A stretch of DNA of 64,000 bases from Eubacteriales bacterium (GCA_045598975.1 JAZRVE010000062.1:18815-82814); one strand, 5' to 3'; shown: positions 23,696 through 41,851, counted from the stretch's first letter. The notes: generated by a model from the sequence alone, not told the origin. Numbers and translations are program-made.

Positions 23696-23710
23696 AGGAG
23701 TACACGGAGG

Positions 23711-24154: not shown

Positions 24155-24163
24155 GGAGAAAGG

Positions 24164-24969: not shown

Positions 24970-24997
24970 TTGCATATTCCGAAGAATATGATATAAT
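24970..24997 (+). promoter_or_regulatory. Strong sigma-A-type promoter with extended -10, candidate promoter of the polysaccharide operon
   Basis: TTGCAT (24970-24975), 16 nt, then TGaTATAAT (TG at 24989-24990, TATAAT at 24992-24997). It sits in an AT-rich 400-nt intergenic region and leaves a ~190-nt leader before the first CDS. Confidence 0.6.
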
Positions 24998-25196
24998 TAT
25001 ACTGTGTGTTTTTGCGCAGTCCCGGTATGAGGGCGAGGCACAAACGGCAGCGGTAAAAAGCCGTGAAAGGTATTGTCAAGGGGAAGCAGAGCACCCGGTT
25101 GTACACCGAATGATATTTTCTGGATATTGCCGGTCTTTGACGATATAAAAAACAGCCGAAACCTTTTTATTGATTTGCACATCGGAGGAAAACAAG

Positions 25197-26414: not shown

Positions 26415-26432
26415 TTTCAGGAGGGAAAGAAA

Positions 26433-27347
26433 ATGAGTAAGATTTTGGTAACCGGTGGTCTGGGCGTCGTCGGCACGGAGCTTGTCAAAGAGCTTCGCTC
26501 CCGTGGTCATGAGGTGTGGGTGTGCGATCTGCCGCACAATCATCACCCGCAGTATATCCGCTGTGATATCGGTGAGTACAGACAGCTCGAAAGAATTTTT
26601 GAGGCGCATACCTTTGACTATGTCTATAATCTGGCGGCGGAATTCGGTCGCTGGAACGGCGAAGATTATTACGAAAAGGTCTGGCATTCCAATGCCGTCG
26701 GTATGAAAAACGTGTTGAGATTGCAGGAGAAGTACCGTTTCAGACTGATCCATTTTTCTTCCTCCGAGGTCTACGGCGATTATACCGACGTCATGTACGA
26801 GGATGTTCTGGAAAAATGCCCCATCAAGCAGATGAACGACTATGCCATCTCCAAGTGGGTGAATGAATTGCAGATCCATAATTCGGAGCTTATGTTCGGC
26901 ACGGAAACGGTCAGAGTCCGTCTGTTCAACACCTACGGACCCGGCGAATATTTCAGCAACTACCGCAGTGTTATCTGCACCTTTACCTATAAAGCACTTC
27001 ACGATATTCCGTACACGGTCTACACGGGACATCACCGGACGAATACCTACATCACCGACTGCGTCCGTGCGCTCGCTACCATCTGCGAGAACTTCAAGCC
27101 GGGCGAGGTCTATAACATCGCATCGTCCGAGTATTACGATATCAAGACGCTGTCCGACCTGATCTTGAAATATGCGGGAAAGACCGACGCGCTTGTGACG
27201 TACAAGGAGCATGAGCCGCAGACGACCATCGACAAAAAAGTGGATAACAGCAAAGCCGTCCGCGATCTCGGGCTCAAAACGACGGTCGATATCGAAGAGG
27301 GCATCCGCCGCAATGTCGAGTGGATGAAGAAAGTATACTCCGAATGA
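26433..27347 (+). CDS. NAD-dependent nucleotide-sugar epimerase/dehydratase (extended SDR)
   Basis: 'ILVTGGLGVVGTELV' Rossmann motif, with 'SSSEVYG' and 'YAISKW' forming the S/YxxxK triad. The exact reaction is unknown. Confidence 0.8.
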   Translation: MSKILVTGGLGVVGTELVKELRSRGHEVWVCDLPHNHHPQYIRCDIGEYRQLERIFEAHTFDYVYNLAAEFGRWNGEDYYEKVWHSNAVGMKNVLRLQEKYRFRLIHFSSSEVYGDYTDVMYEDVLEKCPIKQMNDYAISKWVNELQIHNSELMFGTETVRVRLFNTYGPGEYFSNYRSVICTFTYKALHDIPYTVYTGHHRTNTYITDCVRALATICENFKPGEVYNIASSEYYDIKTLSDLILKYAGKTDALVTYKEHEPQTTIDKKVDNSKAVRDLGLKTTVDIEEGIRRNVEWMKKVYSE

Positions 27348-27390
27348 TTCGGCGCATGCCTGCGGCAGGCGTTGAAGAGGAAGGTCTGCC

Positions 27391-28494
27391 ATGAAAAAAA
27401 TCATGCTTCAAGGATATCTGAACGGCTCGAATTTCGGAGATATTCTGTATGCACATCAGTTTTATCGGAAATGCAAGGAGCTCGGCTTTCGGGAAACCGA
27501 TATTTTTCAGTATAACAAAAATCACGGTATCAGTCCGTTTTGCCGGAAAGAACTCGGATACACGAATCGCAAGAACTTTTTCTCCTCGCTGAGTGCGGAT
27601 GCGTTTGTGCTGATTTCCGGCGGTCATCTTTGGGATGACGGAAAAAGTAAACGCACGGTTGTCCTCAGATACTTGCGATTTGTTTTGCCTGCCCGGCTGT
27701 ATCAGTGCATGGGAAAACCGGTGTACATTCTCGGTGTCGGCGGCGGACCGGTGAATACGCCGTGGCTCAGAAGAAGCATCGTAAGGATGCTTGACCGTGC
27801 AAAGATCGTATACTTTCGTGATGCGGGAACAAAAAAAGTGTTTGAGGCGTATGGCGTAAAGAATCAATTGACCGTGACGGCGGATACGGCGCTTTTGGTA
27901 ACGGCGGATATGCTGCCGGCTTTGCGGGAAAAGCAGGAGCTGGACGCGGCAGCGAACGGACGGAAAAAACTGCTGCTGCATATTCATCCCGGTGATCCGG
28001 CGGGTTTCGGGTACCTTAGGGATATGATATTGCCGGCGCTGATCGATTTTCTGAAAGAACACCGAGAATACCTGCTCGTCTTATCACAGGACAATGAATT
28101 TGATGCCGAAAGTGTGCCGCAAATAAAGGAAGTATATAAAAAGCTGGACGAATCCGGCACGGAGTATTACCGGTATAACTATCACGACTGTATGCAGATG
28201 GCATCTCTTATCAACGAAACGGATTGTATCGTAACGATGAAACTCCATGTCGGTGTTGTCGGTGCGGCGCTCGGCAAAAGCGTGGTATCTTTCCCCGATC
28301 ACCGTGAAAAAACGGATTATTTCTATGCGGAAACAGGAGAATCCGGGAGATGCTGCAACGTCAGACGGCTCACAAGAGAACTGGCATACCGTCAGCTCGA
28401 AGAATTTCACGATAAGCCTGTTGCAATATCCGAGGCTCTGCGAAAAAAAGCCGCGGAAAACCTTGATGCATTGAGCAAAACAGCGCGTATTTAG
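27391..28494 (+). CDS. Polysaccharide pyruvyl transferase family protein (WcaK/CsaB-like)
   Basis: The N-terminal 'GYLNGSNFGDILYA' and 'ISGGHLWDD' resemble PS_pyruv_trans motifs. Size (367 aa) and context also fit. Confidence 0.6.
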   Translation: MKKIMLQGYLNGSNFGDILYAHQFYRKCKELGFRETDIFQYNKNHGISPFCRKELGYTNRKNFFSSLSADAFVLISGGHLWDDGKSKRTVVLRYLRFVLPARLYQCMGKPVYILGVGGGPVNTPWLRRSIVRMLDRAKIVYFRDAGTKKVFEAYGVKNQLTVTADTALLVTADMLPALREKQELDAAANGRKKLLLHIHPGDPAGFGYLRDMILPALIDFLKEHREYLLVLSQDNEFDAESVPQIKEVYKKLDESGTEYYRYNYHDCMQMASLINETDCIVTMKLHVGVVGAALGKSVVSFPDHREKTDYFYAETGESGRCCNVRRLTRELAYRQLEEFHDKPVAISEALRKKAAENLDALSKTARI

Positions 28495-28515
28495 CTTACA
28501 TGAAGGAGGGGCGTT

Positions 28516-29526
28516 ATGCTTTCGAGTTATAGAAAATGGGACGTTCAAGGTAAGACCAAAACGTTGGGATTATGCAAAGGCACGACGGCGTGGGCGCTTG
28601 ACATAATGGCCAGACGCACCGGGAACGACAAATGGGAAAAACCGGTTCACAAAACCTATATGAAATGGTTGCAGAAAAAATATTGGGATGCCGGCTTGTA
28701 TAACACAGATGCCGTGAGTGAAATAACGTTCGGAGAATACGAAAAATCCGACAAGACCGACGTCTGGATTTTTTGGCATCAGGGCTGGGACACCGAAAAT
28801 GCGCCGCACTACGTTGAAGACTGCTTGTATCAGGGTTGGGAGAAAAATTCCGCTCCTGATATTGTCAAGAACTGCCGGAAATCGACAGATAAGTTTTTGG
28901 ATCGGGAAAAATACAATATCCACCGTCTGGATAAAGATAATTACAGCTCATTCGTAAAATTCCCCGAATGGATCATGAAAAAGGTTGAATCGGGAACGAT
29001 CAATCTTACAAAATTCAGCAATTTATTAAGACTGGCACTGCTGTACCGATACGGCGGGATATGGATGGACGCCACCATATTCCTTACGGAGCCGCTTGAT
29101 GAAAAGATAACGGATTATCGGTATTTCTCCATAAAAACGCCGCCGGTAAAACCGAACTTCTGGATATCCTTTGACTGGACAACTTATTTTTTGGCGACCG
29201 GTGCGTGCGAAACAAAGTTTTTCAAAGAACTGCTGACATTGCAGATGGAGTATTGGCGAAGAGAAGACTACGTCATGGATTATCTGCTGTTTGATTATCT
29301 GATCGCCTTGATCCATGCCAACGAGCCGGATATCGCCGAAGAATGGGCGAAAATTCCGGAGAACAATGTAGACAATCTGTTTATTGAGCACTCGTTGAAT
29401 AAGAAATTTGATCCTGTGGAGTGGGAAGAAATCAGGAAGAAAACGAGTATATTCAAGGTTACTTATAAAGTCCCGCTCTCGGACGATCCGGATACATACT
29501 ATAACAGGGTAGTGAACAGTATATGA
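28516..29526 (+). CDS. Capsular polysaccharide synthesis protein (Caps_synth / DXD-type glycosyltransferase-like)
   Basis: 'VWIFWHQGW' and 'FSNLLRLALLYRYGGIWMDATIFLTEPL' are characteristic of the Caps_synth/Gly_transf_sug family. Confidence 0.7.
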   Translation: MLSSYRKWDVQGKTKTLGLCKGTTAWALDIMARRTGNDKWEKPVHKTYMKWLQKKYWDAGLYNTDAVSEITFGEYEKSDKTDVWIFWHQGWDTENAPHYVEDCLYQGWEKNSAPDIVKNCRKSTDKFLDREKYNIHRLDKDNYSSFVKFPEWIMKKVESGTINLTKFSNLLRLALLYRYGGIWMDATIFLTEPLDEKITDYRYFSIKTPPVKPNFWISFDWTTYFLATGACETKFFKELLTLQMEYWRREDYVMDYLLFDYLIALIHANEPDIAEEWAKIPENNVDNLFIEHSLNKKFDPVEWEEIRKKTSIFKVTYKVPLSDDPDTYYNRVVNSI

Positions 29527-30629
29527 AAAAAATCTTATTGATCGCAGACACGTATCATCCCGATTCAAGCGCGACGACGAATCTGTTTCGGCGGACAATG
29601 GAAGCATTGGCAAAGCTCGGCTATGATGTTTCCGTATATCCGACGGAGCTTTCGGGGAACCGATTTTCGTATCCCGAGGAATATAACGGCGTAAAAATCT
29701 TCAAGCCGGAGCAGTCGCTTGATGAGATCCTTGACAGTACGGAATACGATTATGTATTCTCGGGTGCTGTCAATTTCCGGGTGAATTTCATTGCTCATAA
29801 AGCATTAAAGGGCAGAAAATGCAAGTGGTTCCCGACGTCCTACGATCCGTATGCGTTCGATCCGCATATCACGGCGGAACAGAAAAAGGCGTATGTTCAG
29901 GAAGAAATCGACGCTCTGAAAGATGCGGCAAAGGTTTTCTTCTTAACGGAATTCAAAGAGGATTATATCGGCTCGCCGATCGAGGACAAGATCGAGTACT
30001 TCATGCTCCCGTGCATCCGGGAATTTTGCCCCGATACAGCGAAAAGAGTTGTTGAATTTGATGATGATTTTATCAACTGCGTATTCCTCGGAGATTTCTA
30101 TCTCGGCATTGAAAATACGGATTTCATCTTCCGTCTGTTTGAAAAAATCATCGAAAAAAACAAAAAGATACGCTTCTATACGGTCGGCAATCTCGGTGAC
30201 TACGGCGACACGGTCGAATTGTGGAAGAAAAAACTCGGAGACGGGTATATCTGCCATAAGCGTGTCAGCCAAGAGGAATCGTATAATGTGTTATTTGACT
30301 GCGACGTGCTTGTCAGCATGGGGCATGACAGCGCCAATATGTGCCCGAGCAAGATCATAGACTTTGTTTCAGCCGGCAGACCGATCTTACATATCGGGAA
30401 GATCGAAAACTGCTGCGGCAAAAAATATCTCGCGAAATACCCCGATAAATATTGCATTTATCAGGGCGACGAACTGACCGCCGAAAGGGTAGACGAGACA
30501 GAACGGTTTATCGTAAACGCAAAAGGCAGAGAGAGAATACCGTTTGAAGACGTAAAAGAAATATACGGCGATTTCACGATGGAAGCATTGATCGGAAAAA
30601 TTCTCAAAGTATTTGATGAGGTGCGGTAA
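29523..30629 (+). CDS. Putative GT-B-fold glycosyltransferase (family unclear)
   Basis: 'MKKILLIADTYHPDSSATTNLF' is a GT-B-like N-terminus and a second Rossmann-like half follows. There is no clear EX7E motif. It overlaps the previous stop by 4 nt. Confidence 0.45.
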   Translation: MKKILLIADTYHPDSSATTNLFRRTMEALAKLGYDVSVYPTELSGNRFSYPEEYNGVKIFKPEQSLDEILDSTEYDYVFSGAVNFRVNFIAHKALKGRKCKWFPTSYDPYAFDPHITAEQKKAYVQEEIDALKDAAKVFFLTEFKEDYIGSPIEDKIEYFMLPCIREFCPDTAKRVVEFDDDFINCVFLGDFYLGIENTDFIFRLFEKIIEKNKKIRFYTVGNLGDYGDTVELWKKKLGDGYICHKRVSQEESYNVLFDCDVLVSMGHDSANMCPSKIIDFVSAGRPILHIGKIENCCGKKYLAKYPDKYCIYQGDELTAERVDETERFIVNAKGRERIPFEDVKEIYGDFTMEALIGKILKVFDEVR

Positions 30630-30630
30630 C

Positions 30631-31266
30631 ATGATGGAAAACATACTGATCGTCGGGGCGCATTTCGACGATGCCGAGCTCGGTGCCGGCGGCACGGCGG
30701 CAAAGCTTGTAAGTCAGGGAAAAAAAGTATATAAATTCACGCTGACGGATAATGAAACCCATTTCGCACAGCGTAACGTTCACGTCAGTTTCAGCGATTC
30801 GGTAAAACAGAGCGCCGAGGCGGCAAAAGCCATCGGCATGATCGAGATCGAAAACAAGAATCCGATCCCGCACGCCGCTTTGACGTACGGCACGGAGATC
30901 ATGCAGAAGGTGGAAAGCATCATTTTCGATTATCACATCGACACCATCTTCCTCCATTTCGACGAGGATATGCATCAGGATCACGTGGAGGCAAATAAAA
31001 TCTGTCTGACGGCGGCACGGCACTGCGCCAATATCCTCGAATACAAGAGTAACGGATATATTCTCGAAAACGAATATCATCCGACCTATTTCGTGGACAT
31101 CAGCGATTATATCGGGCAAAAGAAAAAGGCACTTGCCTGCTACGGCTCGGAGCATGACAGAATGAGCCGCCTGTTTGAGATGAATATCGAAAGAAATCAT
31201 ATCTGGGGCTATGCAAACGAAGTCGAATACGCCGAGGGCTTCCGCGTCATCAAAATGCTCGGCTGA
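30631..31266 (+). CDS. PIG-L/LmbE-family N-acetylglucosaminyl deacetylase
   Basis: '[22 protein letters not shown]' (the AHxDD...GxGGT motif) and 'HQDH' metal ligands. The ATG at 30631 lies 7 nt after 'gaggtg'. Confidence 0.85.
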
Positions 31267-31298
31267 TAAAAATTCCCATAAGAAAAGAAGTGAAACAG

Positions 31299-32531
31299 AT
31301 GAAGATCGCCATTGCCGGTACGGGATATGTGGGACTGTCGCTTGCGGCTCTGCTTTCGCAGAAGAACGAAGTGACGGCAGTTGATATCGTTCCCGAAAAG
31401 GTCGAAATGATAAATAACAGAATCAGCCCGATTCAGGATAAAGAAATCCAAGAATTTTTTGCCGAAAAGAAGCTGGATCTGAAAGCCACCGTGAATGCCG
31501 AAGAAGCATATCGGGATGCAGAGTATGTTGTCATTGCCGTTCCGACAAACTACGATCCTCAGAAGAACTTTTTTGATACCTCTGCCGTTGAAACTGTGAT
31601 CGAAACGGTGATGCGTCATAACAAAATCTGTGTTATGGTGATAAAATCCACCGTTCCCGTAGGCTATACCGAAAAGGTCTGCGAAAAATACGGAACGGAC
31701 AGAATTATGTTCAGCCCGGAATTTTTGAGAGAATCCAAGGCACTGTATGATAACCTTTATCCGTCCAGAATCATCGCCGGAACGGACAAAGCCAATCCGG
31801 AAATGGTGCAAAAAGCGGTAAAATTTGCCTCACTTCTCCGGGAAAGTGCCGAAAAAGAGGAAGTCGAAACGCTGATTATCGGCAGAAACGAGGCGGAAGC
31901 CGTCAAGCTTTTCGCCAACACCTATCTTGCCCTGCGTGTTTCCTATTTCAACGAGCTTGATACCTATGCGGAGTTGAAAGGCTTGAACACAAAAGACATT
32001 ATCGACGGCGTCTGTCTTGACCCGAGGATCGGGAACTTTTACAACAATCCTTCTTTCGGTTACGGCGGGTACTGCCTGCCGAAGGACACCAAACAGCTCC
32101 TTGCCAACTACGGCGACGTGCCGGAAAATCTGATCGGCGCCATTGTGGAAAGCAACCGTACGCGAAAGGAATTCATCGCAGACCGTGTGCTTGCCATGGC
32201 GGGGTATTATGAGGCAAGCGAAAGCTATGACAAGGCCAAAGAGAAAGAGATCACCGTCGGCGTTTACCGCCTTACCATGAAAAGCGGAAGCGACAATTTC
32301 CGTCAGAGCAGTATCCAGGGTGTGATGAAACGGATCAAAGCCAAAGGGGCAAAGGTCATAGTCTTCGAACCCTCGCTTGAAGACGGCACGACCTTTTTCG
32401 GAAGTGAAGTAGTGAATGATCTGGATTCATTCAAAAAGATGAGTCAGTGCATCATCGCAAACCGATACGACGCCTGCCTTGACGACGTGAAAGAGAAAGT
32501 ATATACAAGAGATTTGTTCAAGAGAGATTGA
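31299..32531 (+). CDS. ugd: UDP-glucose 6-dehydrogenase
   Basis: '[21 protein letters not shown]', 'FSPEFLRE', catalytic Cys in '[10 protein letters not shown]', and overall Ugd length. Confidence 0.92.
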
Positions 32532-33613
32532 TGAAAATGAAGCAAACGACAGAACTGAACGACAGGACGATTCTTGTGACCGGCTCTCCGGGATTTATCG
32601 GCGGCGCCCTTGTGCTCCGGCTGATAAAAGAACTTAATAATGCGACGATCGTTTCATTCGACAACATGAATGACTATTATGATCCGGCACTGAAAGAATA
32701 CCGTCTGGGCCTGATAGAAAAAGCGGCGGAAAAAAAGCCGGATATCAGACACGTTTTCATAAAAGCCGACCTTCATGATAAATCCGCTGTTGATAAGGTG
32801 TTTTCGGAATATAAGCCGGACGTTGTCGTCAACCTTGCCGCACAGGCGGGTGTCCGGTACAGCATTACAAATCCGGATGCGTATATAAATTCAAATATTA
32901 TCGGGTTTTATAACATTCTCGAAGCCTGCCGCCGTTATCCCGTCGAACATCTTGTATATGCAAGCAGCAGTTCCGTTTACGGCGGAAACAGGAAGGTTCC
33001 GTTTTCCACAGACGATAAAGTGGATGATCCCGTATCGCTTTATGCGGCAACAAAGAAATCGAATGAGCTTCTGGCTCACAGTTACAGCAAATTATATAAC
33101 ATTCCCGCTACGGGCTTGCGTTTCTTTACGGTTTACGGTCCCGCGGGAAGACCGGATATGGCATATTTTACCTTTACGGATAAGTTTACAAAGGGCGAAA
33201 CGGTAAAACTGTTCAATTTCGGCGACTGCAAGCGTGATTTTACGTATATTGACGATATCATCGAGGGTGTGTACCGTGTTATGCATGGCGCACCGATAAA
33301 GGAAAACGGCGAGGACGGACTGCCCGTTCCTCCCTATGCGATCTACAATATCGGCGGCGGACAGCCGGAGAATCTCATGTGTTTTGTCAATACCCTTTGC
33401 GAAGAGCTGATCCGTGCCGGTGTTCTGCCGGAGGATTTCGATGTTGCCGCTCACACGGAGAAAGCTCCCATGCAGCCGGGCGATGTTCCGGTGACGTACG
33501 CGGACAGTTCGGGACTCGAACGGGATTACGGCTTTACACCGAAGATTCCGCTTCGGGAAGGGCTCAGGCGGTTTGCCGAATGGTACAAGTCTTATTATGA
33601 TTTATCGATCTGA
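32531..33613 (+). CDS. UDP-glucuronate 4-epimerase (Cap1J/GlaKP-like extended SDR)
   Basis: 'ILVTGSPGFIGGAL', 'YASSSSVYGGN' and 'YAATKKSNELLAHSYSKLYNIPATGLRFFTVYGPAGRPDMA' are typical of UDP-GlcA 4-epimerases. The gene is directly coupled to ugd. The start is ambiguous among 32528, 32531 and 32537. Confidence 0.85.
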   Translation: MKMKQTTELNDRTILVTGSPGFIGGALVLRLIKELNNATIVSFDNMNDYYDPALKEYRLGLIEKAAEKKPDIRHVFIKADLHDKSAVDKVFSEYKPDVVVNLAAQAGVRYSITNPDAYINSNIIGFYNILEACRRYPVEHLVYASSSSVYGGNRKVPFSTDDKVDDPVSLYAATKKSNELLAHSYSKLYNIPATGLRFFTVYGPAGRPDMAYFTFTDKFTKGETVKLFNFGDCKRDFTYIDDIIEGVYRVMHGAPIKENGEDGLPVPPYAIYNIGGGQPENLMCFVNTLCEELIRAGVLPEDFDVAAHTEKAPMQPGDVPVTYADSSGLERDYGFTPKIPLREGLRRFAEWYKSYYDLSI

Positions 33614-33661
33614 CCGACAGCACGGTTACAATACTTTTACAACATATTGGAGTTACTTAAA

Positions 33662-34912
33662 ATGAGGAATATCAAGTTTACTTTCCCGGATATATCGGAT
33701 GCGGAGATTGAGGGTGTTTGCGAAACGCTGAGGTCCGGCTGGCTTACGACCGGCCCCAAAACAAAGTTGTTTGAAAAGAAACTCGCTTCTTTTGTCGGAG
33801 ATTATAACGGTGAAGGATCGCCGAACTGTATCGGGGTCAGCTCCGCTACGGAGGGATTGGAACTGTCTTTGAGGATGCTCGGCATCGGTTCGGGCTCGGG
33901 AGGAAGCGAGAAGGACGAGGTCATCACCTGTGCCTATACGTATACCGCATCGGCATCCGAGATACATCATGTCGGGGCGAAGATCGTGCTTATCGACTGC
34001 CTTGACAAAGACGGCGTCATCGAGCCTGATTATGATAGACTCGAAGCGGCGATAAACGAGAACACCAAAGCCGTTATCCCCGTCGATATCGGAGGCATCC
34101 CCTGCGATTATGACAGGATATTTGAGATACTCGAAAGAAAAAAATCCCTCTTCAAGCCGACTTCCGATCTTCAGGCAATGCTTGGCAGAGTGGCTGTCAT
34201 CGAGGATGCGGCGCACGCTCTCGGTGCCGTTTATAAGGGGAGAAAAATCGGCAGCGTTGCCGATTTCACGGTGTTTTCTTTCCATGCCACGAAGAACTTT
34301 TCAACAGGAGAGGGCGGTGCCATCTTCTGGAATCACTTTGACGGCATAAACGATGACGATATGTATCGCATGACACAGCTTTACAGCCTTCACGGTCAAA
34401 GCAAGGACGCCTTTACCAAGGACAGGCTCGGTGCCTGGGAATACGACATTCTCGGTATCTGGTATAAGTGTAATATGACGGACATCATGGCGGCGATAGG
34501 CCTCGGACAGCTTGAAAGATATCCCACGATGCTTCCGCGCAGAAAAGAAATAATAGAAAGATACGATGCTGCGTTTCGTTCGCTCGGTATAAAAACACTC
34601 GATCATTATACCGGTGAGCACATAAGCTCGGGACACCTCTATGTCACGAGGATACCCGGTATAAACAGGGAGAACGCAAACGAAATTATGGAAAAGATGG
34701 CAAAGGCCGGCATTTGTACAAATGTGCATTTCATACCTCTGCCCATGTTTACGGCGTATAAGAATCTGGGCTTTGATATAAAGGATTATCCGGTCGCCTA
34801 TGCGAAGTTTGAGAATGAGATCACGCTTCCTCTGCATACCAAGCTTACGGATGAAGAGGTGGAGTATGTGATAGAAAAGTATGCGGAGATCGTGCAGGCG
34901 TACAGGAACTGA
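33662..34912 (+). CDS. DegT/DnrJ/EryC1-family PLP-dependent sugar aminotransferase
   Basis: 'EIEGVCETLRSGWLTTGPKTKLFE' and the PLP-lysine motif 'FSFHATKNFSTGEGGAI'. The ATG at 33662 follows 'ggag'. Confidence 0.9.
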   Translation: MRNIKFTFPDISDAEIEGVCETLRSGWLTTGPKTKLFEKKLASFVGDYNGEGSPNCIGVSSATEGLELSLRMLGIGSGSGGSEKDEVITCAYTYTASASEIHHVGAKIVLIDCLDKDGVIEPDYDRLEAAINENTKAVIPVDIGGIPCDYDRIFEILERKKSLFKPTSDLQAMLGRVAVIEDAAHALGAVYKGRKIGSVADFTVFSFHATKNFSTGEGGAIFWNHFDGINDDDMYRMTQLYSLHGQSKDAFTKDRLGAWEYDILGIWYKCNMTDIMAAIGLGQLERYPTMLPRRKEIIERYDAAFRSLGIKTLDHYTGEHISSGHLYVTRIPGINRENANEIMEKMAKAGICTNVHFIPLPMFTAYKNLGFDIKDYPVAYAKFENEITLPLHTKLTDEEVEYVIEKYAEIVQAYRN

Positions 34913-34940
34913 GTTGTCCCTTTAAGAAAGGTGAGATGCC

Positions 34941-36128
34941 TTGAAAAAAGTATTGATAATAGGAGCCGGCTTTTTGCAGATGTTCGTCATAAAAAAAGCA
35001 AAGGATATGGGGTATTACACTCTGGCGGTGGATGCCGATCCCAAAGCTCCCGGCTTTGCTTTTGCGGATAAATACGCCGTCATCAACATCGTTGACGAAA
35101 AAGCCTGCCTTGCATTTGCCCAAAAAAACCAAATCGACGGTGTACTGACCGCCGCTACGGAATACGGTGTACTGACCGCATCGTATATTGCGGAAAAAAT
35201 GAACCTTACGGGGTTAACGTACACGGCGGCTCAAAAGACCAAGAACAAATACAACGTGAAAAAGTGTTTTCTCGAAAACCGTGTCGATGATTCGGATGGT
35301 CAATGCTGCCTTATTGATGCCGATACCGATATCGGCACGCTTGCCGGGAAACTTTGCTATCCGGTGATCGTAAAACCGTGCGACGGCTCCGGCAGTCGGG
35401 GAACGAGCAGAGTTGATGCCCCGGACGGTTTGCCTGCGGCGTGCGGATTTGCCATGAACGGTTCGATTTCTCACCGTGCAGAGGTGGAATCCTTTGTCGA
35501 TGGTAAGGAATACGGCGCGGAAAGTCTTGTCGTAAACGGCAGGGTTTATGTGTTGGCGATCATGAAAAAACGGATGACAGACCCGCCTTATTATGCCGAG
35601 CTCGGTCATATGATCCCCTGCGGACTGCCTGCGGATATTGAAGCAAAAGCAAAGAAATGTGTGGAAAATGCGATCAAAGCGCTCGGGATCAATTCGGGTT
35701 CCGTCAATACGGATATGATCATCACCGACGGCGGAGAAATACATATCGTCGATATCGGTGCCAGAATGGGCGGAAATATGATAGGTCCGTGTATCATTCC
35801 GTACGGTACGGGGATGGATTATATGGCGGCAATGCTCGAAAACGCGGTCGGCGATTTTAAGGAATTCAAAAAAACCGAGCCAGTTGCCGTAGCGACGAGA
35901 TTGCTTGCATTCCCCGAGGGCGATGTGGTAAATCTGCCGGATGTTCCGGCATTTGAAAAAGAATTCGACGTCGAGCTTTACCACCATATGACAAAAGGTC
36001 AGCACGTCAATGCGTATCATACCAATCTGGACGGGCTGGGATACATTGCGGCAAAAGGCAAAACGGCAGAGGAAGCGGAGGAAAAAGCCGCAAAGGCTTA
36101 CAGATATTTATCGGAGGTGCTTTTCTGA
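34941..36128 (+). CDS. ATP-grasp enzyme, L-amino-acid-ligase / carboxylate-amine ligase-like
   Basis: The pre-ATP-grasp Rossmann-like N-terminus 'KVLIIGAGFLQMFVIKKAKDMGY' is followed by 'YPVIVKPCDGSGSRGTSRV' and '...EIHIVDIGARMGG'. It uses a TTG start. Confidence 0.75.
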   Translation: MKKVLIIGAGFLQMFVIKKAKDMGYYTLAVDADPKAPGFAFADKYAVINIVDEKACLAFAQKNQIDGVLTAATEYGVLTASYIAEKMNLTGLTYTAAQKTKNKYNVKKCFLENRVDDSDGQCCLIDADTDIGTLAGKLCYPVIVKPCDGSGSRGTSRVDAPDGLPAACGFAMNGSISHRAEVESFVDGKEYGAESLVVNGRVYVLAIMKKRMTDPPYYAELGHMIPCGLPADIEAKAKKCVENAIKALGINSGSVNTDMIITDGGEIHIVDIGARMGGNMIGPCIIPYGTGMDYMAAMLENAVGDFKEFKKTEPVAVATRLLAFPEGDVVNLPDVPAFEKEFDVELYHHMTKGQHVNAYHTNLDGLGYIAAKGKTAEEAEEKAAKAYRYLSEVLF

Positions 36129-36139
36129 CCGTGGAGCTC

Positions 36140-36610
36140 ATGATGAAAAGAATCAAAATGATGGATCTTGCCGGACTGAAAAAAGTCGAAAAGGTGCTTT
36201 ACGCCTGCGGAAAAGATATGGCAAAAAAATATGATATTCATCAATGGGATAATACGCATGCCAAAGACATGATAATACTCGCTTTGTGTGAGTTGAAAAA
36301 CGACGTGTTTTTGGTTTCCGATGAGCTTGAAAAAACCGTTGCCACGTTTCAGGTCAGAGCGACGGATGATGTGTTATATTTTGAAAAATTCGGGACATTG
36401 CCGGAATGCCGGGGAAAAGGCATAGCTGAAAAGATGCTTGAAAAAATCAAGAGAATCGCAAAAGAGAAAGGCTGTTCCAAAGTCGCCTGCTCGGTTTATG
36501 AAAAAAATAAATACGCGCTTGAATATTATCAAAAAAATGGCTTCACGACCTGCGGCATGACACAAACGAAAAAATACAAATTGATCGATATGGAATTGAG
36601 TGTAATATGA
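36140..36610 (+). CDS. GNAT-family N-acetyltransferase
   Basis: 'CRGKGIAEKMLEKIKRIAKEKGCSKVACSVYEKNKYALEYYQKNGF' is an acetyl-CoA-binding motif A/B region. Confidence 0.8.
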   Translation: MMKRIKMMDLAGLKKVEKVLYACGKDMAKKYDIHQWDNTHAKDMIILALCELKNDVFLVSDELEKTVATFQVRATDDVLYFEKFGTLPECRGKGIAEKMLEKIKRIAKEKGCSKVACSVYEKNKYALEYYQKNGFTTCGMTQTKKYKLIDMELSVI

Positions 36611-37320
36611 ATTCAAATGAAAAACTGACTCCCCGTCAGCATTATGACAGGGTAAAGCATCTCGAAAACTATAACGGGTTTTATCAAAAAACAGTCAAAA
36701 GAGCACTTGATATCCTTATCTGTGTGATGATTCTTCCGTTTTTCTTACTTCTTGCGATACCGATTTCCATAGCGATCAAGCTTGAAGACGGCGGCCCCGT
36801 ATTCTATCGTTCAAAACGGCTCGGTATCGGTTTTAAGGCATTCGGGATGCTGAAATTCCGGTCGATGAAGGTGGATGCACCGGATATCCGAAACCAAGAC
36901 GGAAGCACGTTCAATTCCAGAACGGATGCAAGGGTTACAAAGATCGGACGCATTCTTCGTGAAACGAGCCTTGATGAAACGCCGCAGATTTTCAACATAT
37001 TTGCGGGGCAGATGAGTTTCGTCGGTCCGAGAGCCGGAGACGTGGAGTCCAAAGATACATATGAAGAAGACGAGAAAGACAAACTTTTGATAAGACCGGG
37101 GATAACGGGATATACGCAGGCATATCACAGAAATCAGATGGATGTGGGAAACAAGCGGCTGCTTGACGCTTGGTATGCCCACAGCGTAACATTCTTGCTT
37201 GATGTAAGAATCATTATCCGAACTGTCAGAACGGTTCTTTTCAGAGAAAAGATCTATACGAACAGCGAATCGGAACCGGTTACGGATAAGGAAAAAGAAA
37301 TGATTTCCGCGGCGAAATAA
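36607..37320 (+). CDS. Priming phosphoglycosyl transferase (small monotopic 'bacterial sugar transferase', PglC/WbaP-C-like)
   Basis: 'KRALDILICVMILPFFLLLAIPISIAIKLEDGGPVFY' is the re-entrant helix; also 'KFRSM' and 'DETPQIFNIFAGQMSFVGPRA'. Confidence 0.92.
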   Translation: MNSNEKLTPRQHYDRVKHLENYNGFYQKTVKRALDILICVMILPFFLLLAIPISIAIKLEDGGPVFYRSKRLGIGFKAFGMLKFRSMKVDAPDIRNQDGSTFNSRTDARVTKIGRILRETSLDETPQIFNIFAGQMSFVGPRAGDVESKDTYEEDEKDKLLIRPGITGYTQAYHRNQMDVGNKRLLDAWYAHSVTFLLDVRIIIRTVRTVLFREKIYTNSESEPVTDKEKEMISAAK

Positions 37321-37339
37321 TGATAAAGCGGGTGTGAAG

Positions 37340-38428
37340 ATGGCGGTCAAAAAAAAGACGAAAGCCCTATATAATAAAATATTTGACGGAACCGAAACAA
37401 AGGTCGCCAATGCGATCATCACGTTTCAGGAACGAAGACAGATAAAGAAATACGTCAAAAACATGCCCCGTCTCACATCGGAGCAGAAGAAAGCCGTCAG
37501 GGATTTCTGGAAGCCGTATTGTAAGGTTGATACGGATTGGGTAAGGTACTATACTTATATTACAGGAAAGTTTGATCCGAGATATATCCCGAGTGATCTA
37601 CATTACACAAAAATAGACCAACATTTCAATAACAGAAAACTGGGCTATGGATTCAATGATAAAAACTATTATTCTTTGATTTTTCCGGGGATAAAACAGC
37701 CGAAAACGGTCGTCCGAAAAATCGGCGGGCTGCTTTTTGATGAAGACTATAAGTTGATAGATACGGAAAAAGCGAAGGAGCTTCTGAAAGCCGAGCCGGA
37801 GGTGATCGTAAAACCGACGCAGGAGAGCGGAAGCGGAAGAAATATCCGGTTTTTCGACACAAAATCGGATATGAATGAATTGACCGGCATTTTGTCGGGG
37901 CATGACGACGATAACCTGATCGTTCAGGAAATCGTGAAACAGCACGATGAGCTTGCGAAAATGCATCCGGGATCGCTGAATACCGTTCGTATTTACACGG
38001 TCATGCTGAATGACGGCGTGCACTTTCTGTCCGCTTCTCTGAAAATGGGAGCCGGGGATAGCCGTATTGATAATGTCAGCGCCAATTCCGGCATTATCGT
38101 CGGAGTAAAAGAAAACGGCGAGCTTATGGAAAGCGCATATTTTGATATGTATTCCGGAAAGACGACGGACAGGCATCCCGACGGGATGCTTCTCGGCGAA
38201 ATAAAAGTACCCGAATTTGAAAAGATGCTTGAAACCGTAAAAAGAGCGGCGCAATATACGGGGAATTTCAGATTGGTCGGATGGGATATGTCGGTCGATG
38301 AAGACGGAGATGTTATTCTGATCGAAGCCAATATGCGTAAGGGTGCAATAGGTCCGATTCAATGCGAGCACGGTCCTTTCTTCGGGGAACTGACGGAAAA
38401 AGTGTTAGATGAGGTGTTTGGTAAATGA
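37340..38428 (+). CDS. Sugar-transfer-associated ATP-grasp ligase, paralog 1 (ATPgrasp_ST-like)
   Basis: 'EVIVKPTQESGSGRNIRFFD', 'MHPGSLNTVRIYTV' and 'FRLVGWDMSVDEDGDVILIEANMR'. The ORF opens at GTG 37334; I prefer the ATG at 37340. Confidence 0.75.
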   Translation: MAVKKKTKALYNKIFDGTETKVANAIITFQERRQIKKYVKNMPRLTSEQKKAVRDFWKPYCKVDTDWVRYYTYITGKFDPRYIPSDLHYTKIDQHFNNRKLGYGFNDKNYYSLIFPGIKQPKTVVRKIGGLLFDEDYKLIDTEKAKELLKAEPEVIVKPTQESGSGRNIRFFDTKSDMNELTGILSGHDDDNLIVQEIVKQHDELAKMHPGSLNTVRIYTVMLNDGVHFLSASLKMGAGDSRIDNVSANSGIIVGVKENGELMESAYFDMYSGKTTDRHPDGMLLGEIKVPEFEKMLETVKRAAQYTGNFRLVGWDMSVDEDGDVILIEANMRKGAIGPIQCEHGPFFGELTEKVLDEVFGK

Positions 38429-39483
38429 ACAGAACGTTGTCGAAAATCAAACACGGGGTTTTATCGACTTCTGCCGGCAAAAAAATCAGGAAAACCAAAT
38501 ACAGAGCCTATTTTACAAGAGAAAATGCGATCCGTGATCTGACAAAATTCGGTATTGCTCCCACGGAGGAGCTTATTGCCGATATGTTGAAGGAAGCGTT
38601 GGACCATGACGTGACGTTTAATGAATACCTGTACTATCACTTTTATGAAGTGGAAGAAAAAGAGCGCAGAGAATTCATTCCGTTGTGGGAAGCGGAAAAC
38701 AGGTATGTTGAGGTGTTCAATGATTACAGAACGGCAGACCTGTTTTTCGATAAGGAAAGAGTTTATAACAAATTCAAGCAATTCTATAAGAGAAAACTGA
38801 TTGCATTACATCTATACAATCAGCGGGAAAAAGAGGAATTTCTTGCCTTTTTCAAAAGTGCCGGGCGTGTCATCGTAAAACCGTATGACGGCGGAGAGGG
38901 GCGCGGAGTCCGGATTTTCGATGACAGTACAGACACGGAAAAAATATTTGAGATATTAAAACGTGATTATCGGCACGGTGCGGTCGTCGAAGAAGTCATA
39001 GAACAGGATGAAAGGATGGCGGCTTTGCATCCTGCATCCTTAAATACTTTGAGAATAGCGACAGTCCGGCTTGACGATGAGATCATGGTTCTGCCTCCGG
39101 TCATGCGTGTAGGGGCAAACGGATCGGTCGTGGATAATTGCGGCTCGGGCGGAATATTATGTGAGCTTGATGAAAACGGTGTCGTAACCGGTACGGCGGA
39201 TGAAAGAGGACAAAGCTTTGAATATCACCCGACTACCGGCAAAAAGCTGATCGGATATCAGGTGCCCGACCTTACGGATGCCGTCAACCTGGCAAAAGAG
39301 TTGTCGTCGGTTTATCCGGCAGTCCGACTTGTCGGATGGGATATTGCTTTGTCAAAAGACGGCTTTGTTATGATCGAAGGAAACAGTGCTCCGAATTTTG
39401 CGGCTTATCAGTTATTCGGAAAAGGATGCCGCACATATATGGATTCCGTACTTAACAGATACAAAGAGGGTAAAAACAAATGA
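38425..39483 (+). CDS. Sugar-transfer-associated ATP-grasp ligase, paralog 2
   Basis: 'RVIVKPYDGGEGRGVRIFDD', 'LHPASLNTLRIATV' and 'VRLVGWDIALSKDGFVMIEGNSAP'. The start overlaps the previous stop (ATGA). Confidence 0.75.
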   Translation: MNRTLSKIKHGVLSTSAGKKIRKTKYRAYFTRENAIRDLTKFGIAPTEELIADMLKEALDHDVTFNEYLYYHFYEVEEKERREFIPLWEAENRYVEVFNDYRTADLFFDKERVYNKFKQFYKRKLIALHLYNQREKEEFLAFFKSAGRVIVKPYDGGEGRGVRIFDDSTDTEKIFEILKRDYRHGAVVEEVIEQDERMAALHPASLNTLRIATVRLDDEIMVLPPVMRVGANGSVVDNCGSGGILCELDENGVVTGTADERGQSFEYHPTTGKKLIGYQVPDLTDAVNLAKELSSVYPAVRLVGWDIALSKDGFVMIEGNSAPNFAAYQLFGKGCRTYMDSVLNRYKEGKNK

Positions 39484-40586
39484 ATTTATTTTCGTTAGGC
39501 ACCGGATTTTATAATTGGTTTGTGACGGCTTCTTATGATGTTTTCCGAAAGAAAATAGTAAAAAGCTATTCCATCGGGCAATGGAACGATGCGAAGAAGA
39601 ATTATCCGGACTGGAAAACGCTCACCAAAGAGCAGAAAAGTGAAATTGCGCAGTTCTGGGGGTTACAGCATCCTTCCGAATACGATTTTTATACGCACGA
39701 GATCATGCTGAATGTCCGTGGGGAATTTGACGTCCGCTATTTGCCGGAAAGGATTCATAAAGTATACCTCGATCCGTCTCAGGTGAAAAGAGGCTTTAAC
39801 AGACCGTGGGAGGATAAGAACTATTTTGAACGTTTTCAGCCGAACCTTCCTCTCCCTTATACGTTTGTCAGAAACATAGACGGTTGCTTCCTTGACCATG
39901 ACTATCGGCATATCAGCCGTGAAGAAGCGAAAAGGATCATGCTGGAACACCTTCCTTTGATCGTCAAGCCGTCCATTGATTCGGGAGAGGGCAAAAATCT
40001 CAGACTTGTTTCCGATGCGAAGGGCGTAGAGGAAGTTTTTACGGCATATGATAAGAATTATCTGGCACAGGAGGTCATTGCGCAGTGTGAGTTGTTCGAA
40101 AAAACAAATCCTCACAGCGTTAATGCCATGAGAATCGTTACGGCGATCGTAAACGGAGAAGCAAAGCTTATGTCGGGTATGCTTCTCACCAACACAACCG
40201 ATGTGATCGCGTGCAATACGAACAAAGGCCCCGGTGAGGGCGTGGTTTGTATCGGGATCGATGATAAGGGAAAATTCCTCGATACCGGATATTATGAAAA
40301 CGCAAAACCTCTGACGGAAATGCCGAACGGTCTGAAATTCGGCGGATTGGAAGTACCTTCCTATAAAGAGGCGGTCGCGCTTGCGCTTGAAGCGCATAAT
40401 GCGATGCCGATGTTCGGGATCATCGGCTGGGATATCACCATCGATAAAGATAACAAGCCGCTTATCATCGAGTGGAATCTCCATGCGATCGGTATGTATC
40501 ACTCTCAACTGACGACCGGTCCGCTTTTCGGTGAAGATTCCGAATATTTTGCAAAGCAGGCAAAAGAGCTGATGAAGCGGAGATAA
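39480..40586 (+). CDS. Sugar-transfer-associated ATP-grasp ligase, paralog 3
   Basis: 'PLIVKPSIDSGEGKNLRLVSD', 'TNPHSVNAMRIVTA' and 'FGIIGWDITIDKDNKPLIIEWNLH'. Its N-terminal region resembles paralog 1 ('LTKEQKSEIAQFW' versus 'LTSEQKKAVRDFW'). The start overlaps the previous stop. Confidence 0.75.
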   Translation: MNLFSLGTGFYNWFVTASYDVFRKKIVKSYSIGQWNDAKKNYPDWKTLTKEQKSEIAQFWGLQHPSEYDFYTHEIMLNVRGEFDVRYLPERIHKVYLDPSQVKRGFNRPWEDKNYFERFQPNLPLPYTFVRNIDGCFLDHDYRHISREEAKRIMLEHLPLIVKPSIDSGEGKNLRLVSDAKGVEEVFTAYDKNYLAQEVIAQCELFEKTNPHSVNAMRIVTAIVNGEAKLMSGMLLTNTTDVIACNTNKGPGEGVVCIGIDDKGKFLDTGYYENAKPLTEMPNGLKFGGLEVPSYKEAVALALEAHNAMPMFGIIGWDITIDKDNKPLIIEWNLHAIGMYHSQLTTGPLFGEDSEYFAKQAKELMKRR

Positions 40587-40588
40587 AT

Positions 40589-41851
40589 ATGAGAATACTC
40601 AGACTACGAGCTTACTGTTATCCGGAAAATGCGGCTGCGTTCGCCATGAATGAGGATTTCGAGAACGAGCTTGTCAAAAGAAAGATCACAAGCATCAACT
40701 ATGTGCCCATGCCATCAAGAGGCATTACGGATGAAGTAAGAAAAGAATATAAAAAGAAAAAACACGAGGAACGCAAAGGCGGATATGTGATCGTACACCG
40801 TTTCTCCATGATAAAAGAAGGAACGAACTTTTTGCAGAGAACCTTGAAATTCACGCTTTGCACAATAGCCGAGTATTTCAAAGGGATCAAAGCCAAAGAC
40901 ATTGACGCCGTGTACGCATCAAGTACTCCGCCGACACAGGGAATGCTGTGCGCCAAAGTCGCAAAGAAGCTCGGCAAAAAGAACAAGAAAAAAGTCCCGT
41001 TCGTCTATAATTTGCAGGATATATTCCCGGATTCCCTGGTCAATGCGGGTATGACGAAAAAAGGCAGTCTGATTTGGAAAATCGGTCGAAAAATCGAAGA
41101 TTATACGTACAAAAACGCCGATAGGATCATCGTCATTTCCGAGGGCTTCAAAAAAAACATCATGGCAAAGGGTGTGCCGGAAGAAAAAATCGTTGTTGTG
41201 CCCAACTGGGCGGATACCGACGGAATATATCCGGTGGAGCGGAAAGATAACGTTTTGTTCGACAGATACGGTTTAGATCGGGATAAGTTCTATATTTCTT
41301 ACAGCGGAAATGTCGGATATACGCAGAATATGGATCTGCTCCTTGACACGGCAAAAGAGATAAAGGATGGGCTGAATAACGTTCGCTTTGTCATCATCGG
41401 TGAAGGCGTTGCCAAGGCAGATGTTGAAAGAAGAATAAAAGAAGAAAACATAGATAATGTAATCCTGCTCCCGTTCCAGCCCTATGAGGAGATAGCATAT
41501 GTGTTCAGCCTCGGTGATGTGGGACTTATTATCTCAAAATCCGGTGTAGGCAACAATTCCGTGCCGAGTAAAACATGGGGCTATATGGCGGCGGGGAAGC
41601 CGATCCTTGCTTCCTTTGACAGAGAAAGCGAACTTATATCATTGATTGATAATGTCGGATGCGGAGCGAGTGCACAGGCAGACAGCAAAGACGATCTGAT
41701 AAGAGCGATCCGTCAAATGGTAACCGAATATGATCTGTCGGAAAGAGGAAAACGCGGGGAAATGTATCTGCAAACGAAGCTTAATAAAGAAAACTGCACA
41801 AAACAATATGTTGACACAATAAATGCCGTATTGGAGAGAAAAAACACATGA
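40589..41851 (+). CDS. Glycosyltransferase family 4 (WcaI-like)
   Basis: 'STPPTQGMLCAKVAKKL...FVYNLQDIFPDSLVNAG' and 'VISEGFKKNIMAKGVPEEKIVVVPNWADTD' resemble WcaI-type GT4 enzymes. Confidence 0.75.
   Translation: MRILRLRAYCYPENAAAFAMNEDFENELVKRKITSINYVPMPSRGITDEVRKEYKKKKHEERKGGYVIVHRFSMIKEGTNFLQRTLKFTLCTIAEYFKGIKAKDIDAVYASSTPPTQGMLCAKVAKKLGKKNKKKVPFVYNLQDIFPDSLVNAGMTKKGSLIWKIGRKIEDYTYKNADRIIVISEGFKKNIMAKGVPEEKIVVVPNWADTDGIYPVERKDNVLFDRYGLDRDKFYISYSGNVGYTQNMDLLLDTAKEIKDGLNNVRFVIIGEGVAKADVERRIKEENIDNVILLPFQPYEEIAYVFSLGDVGLIISKSGVGNNSVPSKTWGYMAAGKPILASFDRESELISLIDNVGCGASAQADSKDDLIRAIRQMVTEYDLSERGKRGEMYLQTKLNKENCTKQYVDTINAVLERKNT

Follow-up and report, generated by a model that had tools for sequence, protein, structure and literature searches.

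Acylation of a sugar C4 amine by an ATP-grasp ligase has two experimentally characterised precedents. In the UDP-yelosamine pathway of Bacillus cereus ATCC 14579, the aminotransferase Pat produces UDP-4-amino-FucNAc and the ATP-grasp ligase Pyl joins 2-oxoglutarate to its C4 amine at the level of the UDP-sugar (Hwang et al. 2014, JBC 289:35620, cited in PMC11626204). The outline in PMC11626204 places the two genes directly upstream of a small monotopic phosphoglycosyl transferase (PGT) predicted to use the product, and in that outline neither a GNAT partner nor a second ligase is described. In Neisseria, the ATP-grasp domain of PglB2 replaces the bacillosamine acetyltransferase, and a 4-N-acyl (glyceramido) trideoxyhexose, GATDH, is the priming sugar. 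That ligase is fused to its PglC-type PGT, installs a glyceroyl group without a GNAT and serves protein O-glycosylation.

Related priming systems lack the ligase. The Campylobacter PglF/PglE/PglD/PglC proteins make and load UDP-diNAcBac by means of a dehydratase, a C4 aminotransferase, N-acylation and PglC-type transfer. In the AATGal pathway of Streptococcus pneumoniae teichoic acid (Spr0092, Spr1654) and in WcfR/WcfS of Bacteroides fragilis, an aminotransferase is found beside a small PGT with the dehydratase encoded elsewhere, but the sugar is transferred with a free amine and neither a ligase nor a GNAT lies between the two. Spr1654 is the proposed UDP-AATGal-forming aminotransferase, and its dehydratase, Spr0092, is encoded at a distance from it.

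The first sugar of a repeat unit sets acceptance by the initiating transferase and polymerase, and often dominates antigenicity. We analysed a 64-kb window (the whole stretch of DNA presented here), from the genome of a gut member of the Clostridia, containing a cassette that appears to combine these elements. From sequence and by analogy with the systems above, we put at about 0.6 the probability that a UDP-4-amino-4,6-dideoxy-HexNAc is N-acylated by an ATP-grasp ligase, capped by a GNAT and moved to undecaprenyl phosphate. The module would most likely be a variation on reactions known from Bacillus cereus and Neisseria. It resembles the Pyl system in predicted chemistry and in gene context, and PglB2 in the coupling of ligase to PGT. 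Compared with Campylobacter, it has a GNAT in place of the PglD beta-helix enzyme, an additional ATP-grasp protein and no dehydratase in the window.

A compact cassette and its relatives

The genes concerned are these:

33647..34912, + strand: DegT-family PLP aminotransferase, 421 aa, first ATG at 33662 (PF01041)
34941..36128, + strand: L-amino-acid-ligase-type (LAL-type) ATP-grasp carboxylate-amine ligase, 395 aa (ATP-grasp_4, LAL_C2, PylC-like_N)
36131..36610, + strand: GNAT acetyltransferase, 159 aa, first ATG at 36140 (Acetyltransf_1)
36607..37320, + strand: small monotopic PglC-like PGT, 237 aa (Bac_transf)
37334..40586, + strand: three tandem ATPgrasp_ST ligase paralogs, directly 3' of the PGT (PF14397, Pfam)

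The first four had been predicted from sequence as consecutive and closely packed, and all were found at the positions given, on the + strand. Only 28 nt separate DegT from the ligase and 2 nt the ligase from the GNAT, while the GNAT and PGT genes overlap by 4 nt (ATGA). The start originally given for DegT, 33662, is its first ATG; the open reading frame opens at 33647. A promoter and terminator scan of 23600-41000 gave nothing above shuffled expectation. The surrounding locus is a Wzy-dependent capsule locus, in which the cassette genes are separate.

The aminotransferase matches PF01041 (288.6 bits) and, over residues 7-415, Spr1654 (PDB 6EWJ; 466.9 bits, E 5e-139). The Schiff-base lysine motif (HATKNF), the Asp motif and an insertion specific to Spr1654 all align between the two proteins. 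The PGT matches Bac_transf (183.9 bits) and Campylobacter concisus PglC (8G1N; 112 bits), and the motifs of a small monotopic PGT, LDETPQ with its Asp-Glu dyad, KFRSM and VGPRA, can be read in its sequence. It is the sole initiating transferase of the locus. The GNAT matches Acetyltransf_1 (PF00583; 53.2 bits), and the acetyl-CoA motif R-G-K-G-I-A is readable. Pfam found no Hexapep protein in the cassette that could be a PglD-type left-handed beta-helix acetyltransferase; the GNAT is present instead.

The cassette was found in 108 non-redundant loci from gut and rumen Clostridia, a recurrence that makes its juxtaposition far from chance; the carriers span families and, as labelled, even phyla. 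We estimate that it reaches hundreds of uncultured members of this group. The commonest arrangements are DegT-GNAT-LAL-PGT (39 loci), CapD-DegT-GNAT-LAL-PGT (16) and DegT-LAL-LAL2-PGT (15), where LAL2 is a second ligase paralog in the place of the GNAT. The ligase is thus found alone, with the GNAT, with the second ligase, or with both. Gene order varies while membership is constant, as in the window and loci L142, L143, L123 and L020. We read the four genes as a probable self-contained unit, in which the sugar that opens the capsule repeat is both made and loaded.

Proposed acylation of the C4 amine

The ligase matches ATP-grasp_4 (55.5 bits), LAL_C2 (PF18603; 33.8 bits, cutoff 29.4), ATP-grasp_3 and PylC-like_N. 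It scores 117 bits against PDB 4DIM and 99 bits against the L-amino acid ligase BL00235 (3VOT), and in Pfam these LAL-type models match where PF14305 and PF14397 do not. Its AF2 model (pLDDT 85.8) has 4DIM, 3VOT, PurT and PurK as the best Foldseek matches (E 1e-30 to ATP-grasp ligases), with TM-scores of 0.77-0.80 to LAL and PurT structures (3VOT, 0.79) at an identity of only 17-24%. The ATP and Mg residues are intact: K145, E183, D258, D271 and R275 are unchanged across 22 homologs. At E <= 1e-10 a homolog search returned more than 2,380 protein clusters. The protein has the fold of the UDP-4-amino-sugar:carboxylate ligases (Pyl and the PglB2 domain) and their coupling to a C4 aminotransferase and small PGT, as well as the ATP-grasp and LAL C-terminal domain 2 that mark L-amino acid ligases. 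Its fold and ATP-grasp/LAL_C2 domain set are common to LALs (BL00235, YwfE/BacD, RizA) and PurT; its genomic context suggests another acceptor, the amine of a nucleotide sugar in place of a free amino acid.

We propose the following route. DegT would transaminate C4 to give UDP-2-acetamido-4-amino-2,4,6-trideoxyhexose, a step for which the homology is strong; the galacto form (AATGal, or FucNAc4N) is the probable isomer, as proposed for Spr1654. Context and precedent suggest that the ligase converts a carboxylic acid to its acyl phosphate and, with the sugar in UDP-bound form, couples it to the C4 amine, an N-acylation that we regard as quite probable. Since the ligase is partnered by an enzyme that acetylates amines, the acid would most likely be an amino acid. 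The GNAT is predicted to cap the product by acetylating the alpha-amine of the ligated residue; in sister loci the second ligase would attach another residue in place of acetylation. By homology, the PGT would transfer the tailored sugar 1-phosphate to undecaprenyl phosphate.

Acylation by the ligase with capping by the GNAT had been put forward in the original prediction, and comparison of the loci is consistent with it, as are Pyl and PglB2. When 53 metagenome loci were scanned around the GNAT, the ligase adjoined it in every locus whose sequence extended far enough, and two metagenome-assembled genomes (L053, L059) encode GNAT-ligase fusions as single open reading frames. Exchange of the GNAT for LAL2 is accompanied by a shift in PGT clade. 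The similarity of the PGT to that of the window has a median of 239 bits (228-261) with LAL2 and 327 without, while that of the ligase (520 against 538) and DegT (550 against 544) is unchanged. This indicates that the transferase recognises the ligase product, in which case acylation would precede transfer. Co-inheritance of the cassette could explain part of the co-variation of PGT and LAL2.

The classic module would have the GNAT acetylate the C4 amine to give a UDP-2,4-diacetamido-trideoxyhexose, leaving the ATP-grasp enzyme to act elsewhere, for instance on the lipid-linked glycan or a different residue. GNATs acting directly on NDP-4-amino sugars do exist, PseH among them, to which the window's GNAT has a weak match (28.6 bits), and the locus holds further amide-forming ligases and carboxylate sugars. 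However, the ligase remains with DegT and the PGT while the remainder of the locus changes, and the 15 loci in which LAL2 takes the place of the GNAT retain both ligases. The fusions would also put two competitors for one amine in a single polypeptide, and the precedents show that an ATP-grasp enzyme can acylate that very amine. We therefore consider the classic route unlikely.

Equally unlikely, in our view, is that the ligase attaches 2-oxoglutarate, glycerate or another small non-amino acid and that the GNAT modifies something else. Pyl and PglB2 both use such acids, formate-ligating PurT is among the structural neighbours, and the cassette of related loci has no conserved racemase or other gene for supplying amino acids. 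Against this, the strict coupling and fusion of GNAT and ligase demand an amine on the ligase product, and a LAL-type second ligase alternating with the GNAT suits extension of a chain at that amine. The LAL_C2 domain and likeness to BL00235 also favour amino acids.

Returning to acylation with an amino acid, we hold the identification of the acyl group as an N-acetylated amino acid at slightly less than even odds. The characterised precedents, with their 2-oxoglutarate and glycerate and no obvious role for a GNAT, speak against an amino acid. If the group were an amino acid or dipeptide, the capsules of commensals would contain tunable, peptide-decorated and possibly zwitterionic amino sugars, with a bearing on host immune recognition, as for Bacteroides fragilis PSA and the pneumococcal type 1 capsule. 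The scheme would also suggest a substrate for small-PGT sequence clusters that lack an assignment and widen the chemistry of Pyl and PglB2 from two cases to a large family with predictable partner enzymes.

Other assignments for the ligase were considered. It might have been a uronic-acid amidoligase of the Cj1438 C-terminal domain type, but it is not bound to uronic acids, since only 7 of the 40 fully flanked loci (9 kb fetched on each side, any UDP-sugar 6-dehydrogenase scored) encode a UDP-sugar 6-dehydrogenase. In support of the proposed route, Enterococcus hirae and Bacteroides finegoldii also have a LAL-type ligase, more distant at 28-35% identity, within a CapD-DegT-PGT cassette. The 'NAD(P) oxidoreductases' beside distant ligases were considered as a source of the acyl group through 2-hydroxyacid dehydrogenase activity, but they are extended-SDR sugar-nucleotide enzymes. 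Homolog searches returned no Bacillus cereus homolog of the ligase, and a search seeded with the Enterococcus hirae ligase gave only gut Firmicutes.

The source of the putative 4-keto sugar

Pfam searches of every open reading frame in the locus and of all those of at least 550 aa in the 64-kb window found no full PF02719 protein, and the verified CapD of a related locus (L018), used in phmmer and tblastn searches of the window, gave only 46-58 bits, on a 361-aa SDR. The original statement that a large CapD-like dehydratase is missing from the window is thus confirmed, and the reading of the cassette as a priming module of the bacillosamine or AATGal type without a local dehydratase is supported. 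The view of the absence as an anomaly is not supported: a PglF/CapD protein adjoins the cassette in 17 of the 49 relatives with sufficient upstream sequence, and pneumococcal Spr0092 is likewise apart from Spr1654. Where present, the dehydratases lie directly upstream of the DegT orthologs and are verified PF02719 proteins (373-434 bits). That none was found in the 64 kb counts against the proposed route.

The SDR at 26433, suggested as the missing dehydratase, does not fit. It scores 367 bits against Mth373, an assigned UDP-xylose synthase, carries SSE/YAISK in place of the dehydratase motifs TDE or TDK, and matches PF02719 only partially (23.6 bits). The 361-aa SDR at 32528 was also rejected. 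It scores 336 bits against 5U4Q and 120 bits against BcUGAepi, and has SSSSVYG/YAATK motifs that we take to be typical of UDP-GlcA 4-epimerases. A Ugd is encoded at 31290, just upstream of DegT, and similarly placed in several metagenome loci.

An ArnB-like route from UDP-GlcA, made by this Ugd, would account for the absent 4,6-dehydratase: an SDR such as that at 26433 would give a UDP-4-keto-pentose by oxidative decarboxylation, DegT a 4-amino-pentose, and acylation would follow. The position of Ugd and the UDP-xylose-synthase-like character of the 26433 SDR fit such a route, and among the families that DegT matches, ArnB comes second (214 bits; 184 bits to 4LC3). Yet DegT is much nearer to Spr1654 (467 bits), CapD dehydratases stand beside its orthologs, including a CapD-Ugd-DegT arrangement in L128, and Ugd-DegT loci have no decarboxylase-type SDR nearby. 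Mth373-type enzymes, moreover, release UDP-xylose and not the 4-keto intermediate. The route seems decidedly improbable.

Least credible of all is a true L-amino-acid ligase whose product is a small metabolite or free dipeptide and whose link to the capsule genes is passive, which the LAL_C2 domain, the similarity to BL00235 and the non-glycan surroundings of remoter homologs carried by plasmids of Bacillus, Priestia and Staphylococcus might suggest, but which sits poorly with a ligase kept between DegT and the PGT in more than 100 loci and a PGT that co-varies. The genomic context argues for a sugar amine, not a free amino acid, as the probable acceptor.

The ATPgrasp_ST paralogs

The three ligases following the PGT match PF14397 in Pfam (125.6, 166.4 and 94.3 bits) and are 29-33% identical to one another. 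PDB and literature searches on ST and TupA-like ligases found nothing. These paralogs may extend the module and be tied to the priming sugar: an ST ligase starts no more than 150 nt from the PGT stop in 24 of the 26 related loci that carry one, and the flanks fetched for these loci encode a UDP-sugar 6-dehydrogenase in only 3 cases, leaving 23 without a uronic-acid pathway there.

A bolder idea, which we think distinctly unlikely, is that the LAL-type ligase works with the GNAT and all three ST ligases as one line, in which a short peptide is assembled without ribosomes on the priming sugar's C4 amine. The residue added first would be an acidic amino acid bearing an N-acetyl group; once the sugar is lipid-linked, the ST ligases would lengthen the chain step by step from the free carboxylate of that residue. 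The capsule repeat unit would then have a counterpart of the peptidoglycan 'stem peptide', produced by ATP-grasp enzymes and not Mur ligases. The ST block is kept in the close relatives L142 and L143, with 3-4 paralogs per block.

The capsule locus and its cassette

The capsule or exopolysaccharide locus is a same-strand run from about 25170 to 51137, with the four-gene cassette inside it.

Genes of the locus and its flank (all on the same strand, except the last line)
25170: NDP-sugar 6-dehydrogenase, closest to UDP-ManNAc dehydrogenase with a score below cutoff
26433: SDR, 304 aa
27391-28494: pyruvyl transferase
28516 and 29523: two glycosyltransferases
30613-31266: PIG-L de-N-acetylase
31290: Ugd
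32528: SDR, 361 aa
33647-34912 (first ATG 33662): DegT/DnrJ/EryC1 aminotransferase (PF01041, 288.6 bits)
34941-36128: ATP-grasp protein (ATP-grasp_4, ATP-grasp_3, LAL_C2, PylC-like_N)
36131-36610 (first ATG 36140): GNAT (Acetyltransf_1, 53.2 bits)
36607-37320: phosphoglycosyl transferase (PGT), 237 aa (Bac_transf, 183.9 bits)
37334-40586: three ATPgrasp_ST ligases
40589, 41848 and 42936: three GT4 glycosyltransferases
44043: Wzy
45245-46150: TupA-like ATP-grasp
46262: GT2
47317-48822: protein without Pfam match, 501 aa
48826: Wzz/tyrosine kinase
50436: CpsB phosphatase
51222-56188, minus strand: PGM, ManC, Fcl-like epimerase/reductase and Gmd (GDP-fucose supply)

ORF coordinates and Pfam confirm the four cassette genes where the original prediction had placed them. 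They are tightly packed, with 28 nt between DegT and the ATP-grasp gene, 2 nt before the GNAT and a 4-nt overlap of GNAT and PGT. Positions 32397-35571 are 99.6% identical in nucleotides to a 3.2-kb contig from a Candidatus Alloscillospira sp. MAG, which places the source among gut Clostridia. The 501-aa ORF lies between the GT2 and Wzz/kinase genes; a MurJ-like flippase has a comparable place in L001, homologs recur among the related loci, and the protein is probably the flippase. Elsewhere in the window, 7163-10033 encodes a 956-aa protein with an NAGPA phosphodiester-glycosidase domain and a C-terminal S-layer homology domain, and a tRNA gene at 57290-57362 (minus strand) is the sole Rfam match at the gathering threshold.

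The DegT protein matches PDB 6EWJ, the S. pneumoniae aminotransferase Spr1654 (Open Biology paper), over residues 7-415 with 466.9 bits (E 5e-139), while ArnB-type enzymes score much lower, at 184 bits and below. Among solved structures, the best sequence matches of the ATP-grasp protein are 4DIM, an uncharacterised protein (117 bits), and BL00235, an L-amino-acid ligase (99 bits). Its AlphaFold model (pLDDT 85.8) superposes on both and on PurT and PurK with TM 0.76-0.80, and the usual ATP-grasp residues are invariant among 22 homologs. The GNAT has an ordinary acetyl-CoA motif, and its relatives are all generic. The PGT aligns to PglC (112 bits) and the catalytic domain of WbaP, and has the Asp-Glu dyad motif.

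Conservation and coupling of the cassette genes

A homolog search seeded with the ligase returned at least 2,380 proteins at E <= 1e-10, and identity was still 63% at the 120th-best match. A one-genome-per-species scan gave 80 loci, from Oscillospiraceae, Lachnospiraceae, Christensenellaceae, Erysipelotrichaceae, Anaerococcus and others, and a second scan, with the GNAT as query, gave 53 metagenome loci. The ORFs of all loci were labelled by phmmer against the window proteins, and 108 loci were left once duplicates had been removed. The four-gene cassette is a conserved module.

Gene orders among the 108 loci (LAL, LAL-type ligase; LAL2, second LAL-type paralog)
DegT-GNAT-LAL-PGT: 39
CapD-DegT-GNAT-LAL-PGT: 16
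DegT-LAL-LAL2-PGT: 15
GNAT-LAL-PGT: 12
DegT-LAL-PGT: 6
Minor variants: the remainder

The window's own order, DegT-LAL-GNAT-PGT, is common to its closest relatives (79% and 86% identity), which also carry three or four ST ligases 3' of the PGT. Cultured bacteria can carry the module too, among them Catenibacillus scindens DSM 106146 (L041; CapD ... DegT-GNAT-LAL-PGT). Insertions were seen occasionally: a GT2 between DegT and ligase (L143:2784-3851), a VanZ-like protein between DegT and GNAT (L008:8554-9501) and, in a Faecousia sp. MAG (L073:3639-7649), NeuB- and NeuC-like genes of the nonulosonic acid pathway and two further ORFs between ligase and PGT. Contigs from bins labelled Limisphaerales, Planctomycetaceae, Bacteroidaceae and Anaerovibrio (L051, L052, L057, L062) likewise carry the cassette, with ligases 58-62% identical; these labels reflect either horizontal transfer or mis-binning.

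In every informative locus of the GNAT-centred scan, the GNAT family was accompanied by the ligase. In two MAGs an N-terminal GNAT and the LAL-type ATP-grasp, both recognised by Pfam, form a single ORF, of 556 aa in a Congzhengia sp. (L053:9515-11185) and 553 aa in a Christensenellaceae member (L059:9503-11164). LAL2, about 32% identical to the first ligase, takes the place of the GNAT in 15 loci (for example L028:11192-12394; variant loci L012, L016, L028, L045-L047, L049, L052, L060, L068, L070, L078, L081, L083, L084 and L133); two or three loci have both. The PGTs of LAL2 loci form a distinct clade, with a median similarity to the window PGT of 239 bits (228-261) against 327 otherwise. The ligase (520 with LAL2, 538 otherwise) and DegT (550 and 544) show no comparable shift. 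Of the 40 loci flanked by 9 kb or more to the left and to the right, only 7 encode a UDP-sugar 6-dehydrogenase of any kind.

Source of the predicted amino sugar

The original prediction held that the window has no large CapD-like dehydratase, and this stands. None was found by Pfam among all ORFs of the locus and every window ORF of at least 550 aa, and the verified CapD of a relative, searched against the window by phmmer and tblastn, hit nothing but the 361-aa SDR, with 46-58 bits. In five related loci, ORFs of 627-655 aa, directly upstream of DegT in L018, L023, L076 and L035 and between ligase and DegT in L020, are Polysacc_synt_2 proteins (373-434 bits); all have the N-terminal CoA_binding_3 region of the PglF/CapD type. 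Of the 49 loci whose upstream sequence extends far enough, 17 have a gene of this type no more than 7 kb from the ligase. The window is among the unlinked majority, with no dehydratase beside the cassette within 64 kb. This is as in pneumococcus, where the presumed dehydratase, the transmembrane protein Spr0092, is encoded elsewhere (Open Biology paper).

The 304-aa SDR at 26433, which had been proposed as the missing 4,6-dehydratase, is rejected for that role. It matches Mth373 (PDB 8W3U, 9AR1), crystallised with UDP-xylose and assigned as a UDP-xylose synthase, with 367 bits, and has in common with Mth373 the motifs EFGRW, S-x-E and YAI(S/T)K, not TDE or TDK. The NDP-sugar 6-dehydrogenase adjoins it (25170-27347), and the locus has no UDP-GlcNAc 2-epimerase. 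A pentose or N-acetyl-pentosamine nucleotide is the more likely product of the pair, which may form a UDP-xylose or UDP-XylNAc-like route.

Proposed chemistry and known systems

As the transferase clade tracks the tailoring enzymes, we infer that the substrate of the ligase is the amino sugar itself and that ligation comes ahead of transfer. The ligase product would bear an amine, because the dedicated partner either acetylates amines or is another carboxylate-amine ligase. In the simplest chain the sugar amine would be joined to an amino acid, and the aminoacyl-amino sugar would be left free, given an acetyl cap by the GNAT or lengthened by LAL2. The GNAT could instead act first, on the free amino acid, with ligation second and the same product. 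The original prediction of an amino-acid-acylated, GNAT-capped sugar appears largely sound, given the GNAT-ligase coupling and fusions and the PGT clade shift; its choice of SDR was wrong.

It is unlikely that the GNAT acetylates the sugar amine directly while the ligase works elsewhere, as the two are fused in some loci and GNAT-less loci retain the ligase. A non-amino acyl group, as used by Pyl (a Bacillus cereus ATP-grasp acting on UDP-4-amino-FucNAc) and PglB2 (a Neisseria ATP-grasp/PGT fusion), has precedent but would leave the obligate GNAT unexplained, and seems improbable. An ArnB-like route from UDP-GlcA is very unlikely in view of the DegT match to Spr1654 and the CapD neighbours. 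A free-dipeptide ligase is scarcely credible in a conserved position between DegT and PGT.

The locus has five ATP-grasp ligases: the LAL-type enzyme, the three tandem ATPgrasp_ST (PF14397) paralogs, 29-33% identical to each other, and the TupA-like one. An ST ligase starts less than 150 nt from the PGT stop in 24 of 26 related loci, and in the flanks examined uronic-acid genes are absent from 23 of the 26, a UDP-sugar 6-dehydrogenase being present in three. This placement and absence prompt the idea that the neighbouring ST ligases lengthen the acyl group to a short peptide on the priming sugar, which we consider quite doubtful. Sequence searches found no solved structure for the ATPgrasp_ST and TupA-like families, and no mention of PF14397 was found in the literature searched.

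The underlying chemistry is established in two cases, Pyl and PglB2. The Imperiali/Allen survey notes the ATP-grasp gene and the sugar-modifying genes close to small PGTs that belong to network cluster 24. The PglB2 allele encodes a bifunctional protein to which a glyceramido-acetamido-trideoxyhexose, in place of diNAcBac, is attributed. Judged by description and gene context, the window module would work like these two systems. It differs in its dedicated, sometimes fused GNAT, its alternative second ligase and its family scale in gut commensals. The cassette probably represents an uncharacterised, very widespread subfamily of Pyl/PglB2-type tailoring with a predictable combinatorial logic, and is less novel than it seemed at first.

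More distant LAL-type ligases, 28-35% identical to the window enzyme, lie on plasmids of Enterococcus hirae (CapD-DegT-SDR-PGT-ligase) and Bacteroides finegoldii (DegT-ligase-ligase-SDR). As they occupy the same kind of cassette, they suggest a broader superfamily of putative amino-sugar N-acyl ligases that differ in acyl donor. On plasmids of Bacillus, Priestia and Staphylococcus, homologs that are more distant again lie in non-glycan contexts.

The 361-aa SDR at 32528 has motifs typical of UDP-glucuronate 4-epimerases. It matches 5U4Q with 336 bits. The pyruvyl transferase (27391-28494), Ugd with this UDP-GlcA 4-epimerase-like SDR (31290-33613) and the amino-sugar module together give a composition reminiscent of two zwitterionic polysaccharides, B. 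fragilis PSA and pneumococcal type 1; in the window, by contrast, the amine is probably acylated. The PIG-L de-N-acetylase of the locus could free another sugar amine that might then be acylated; in the relative with 79% identity its gene immediately precedes DegT (L142:641-1273).
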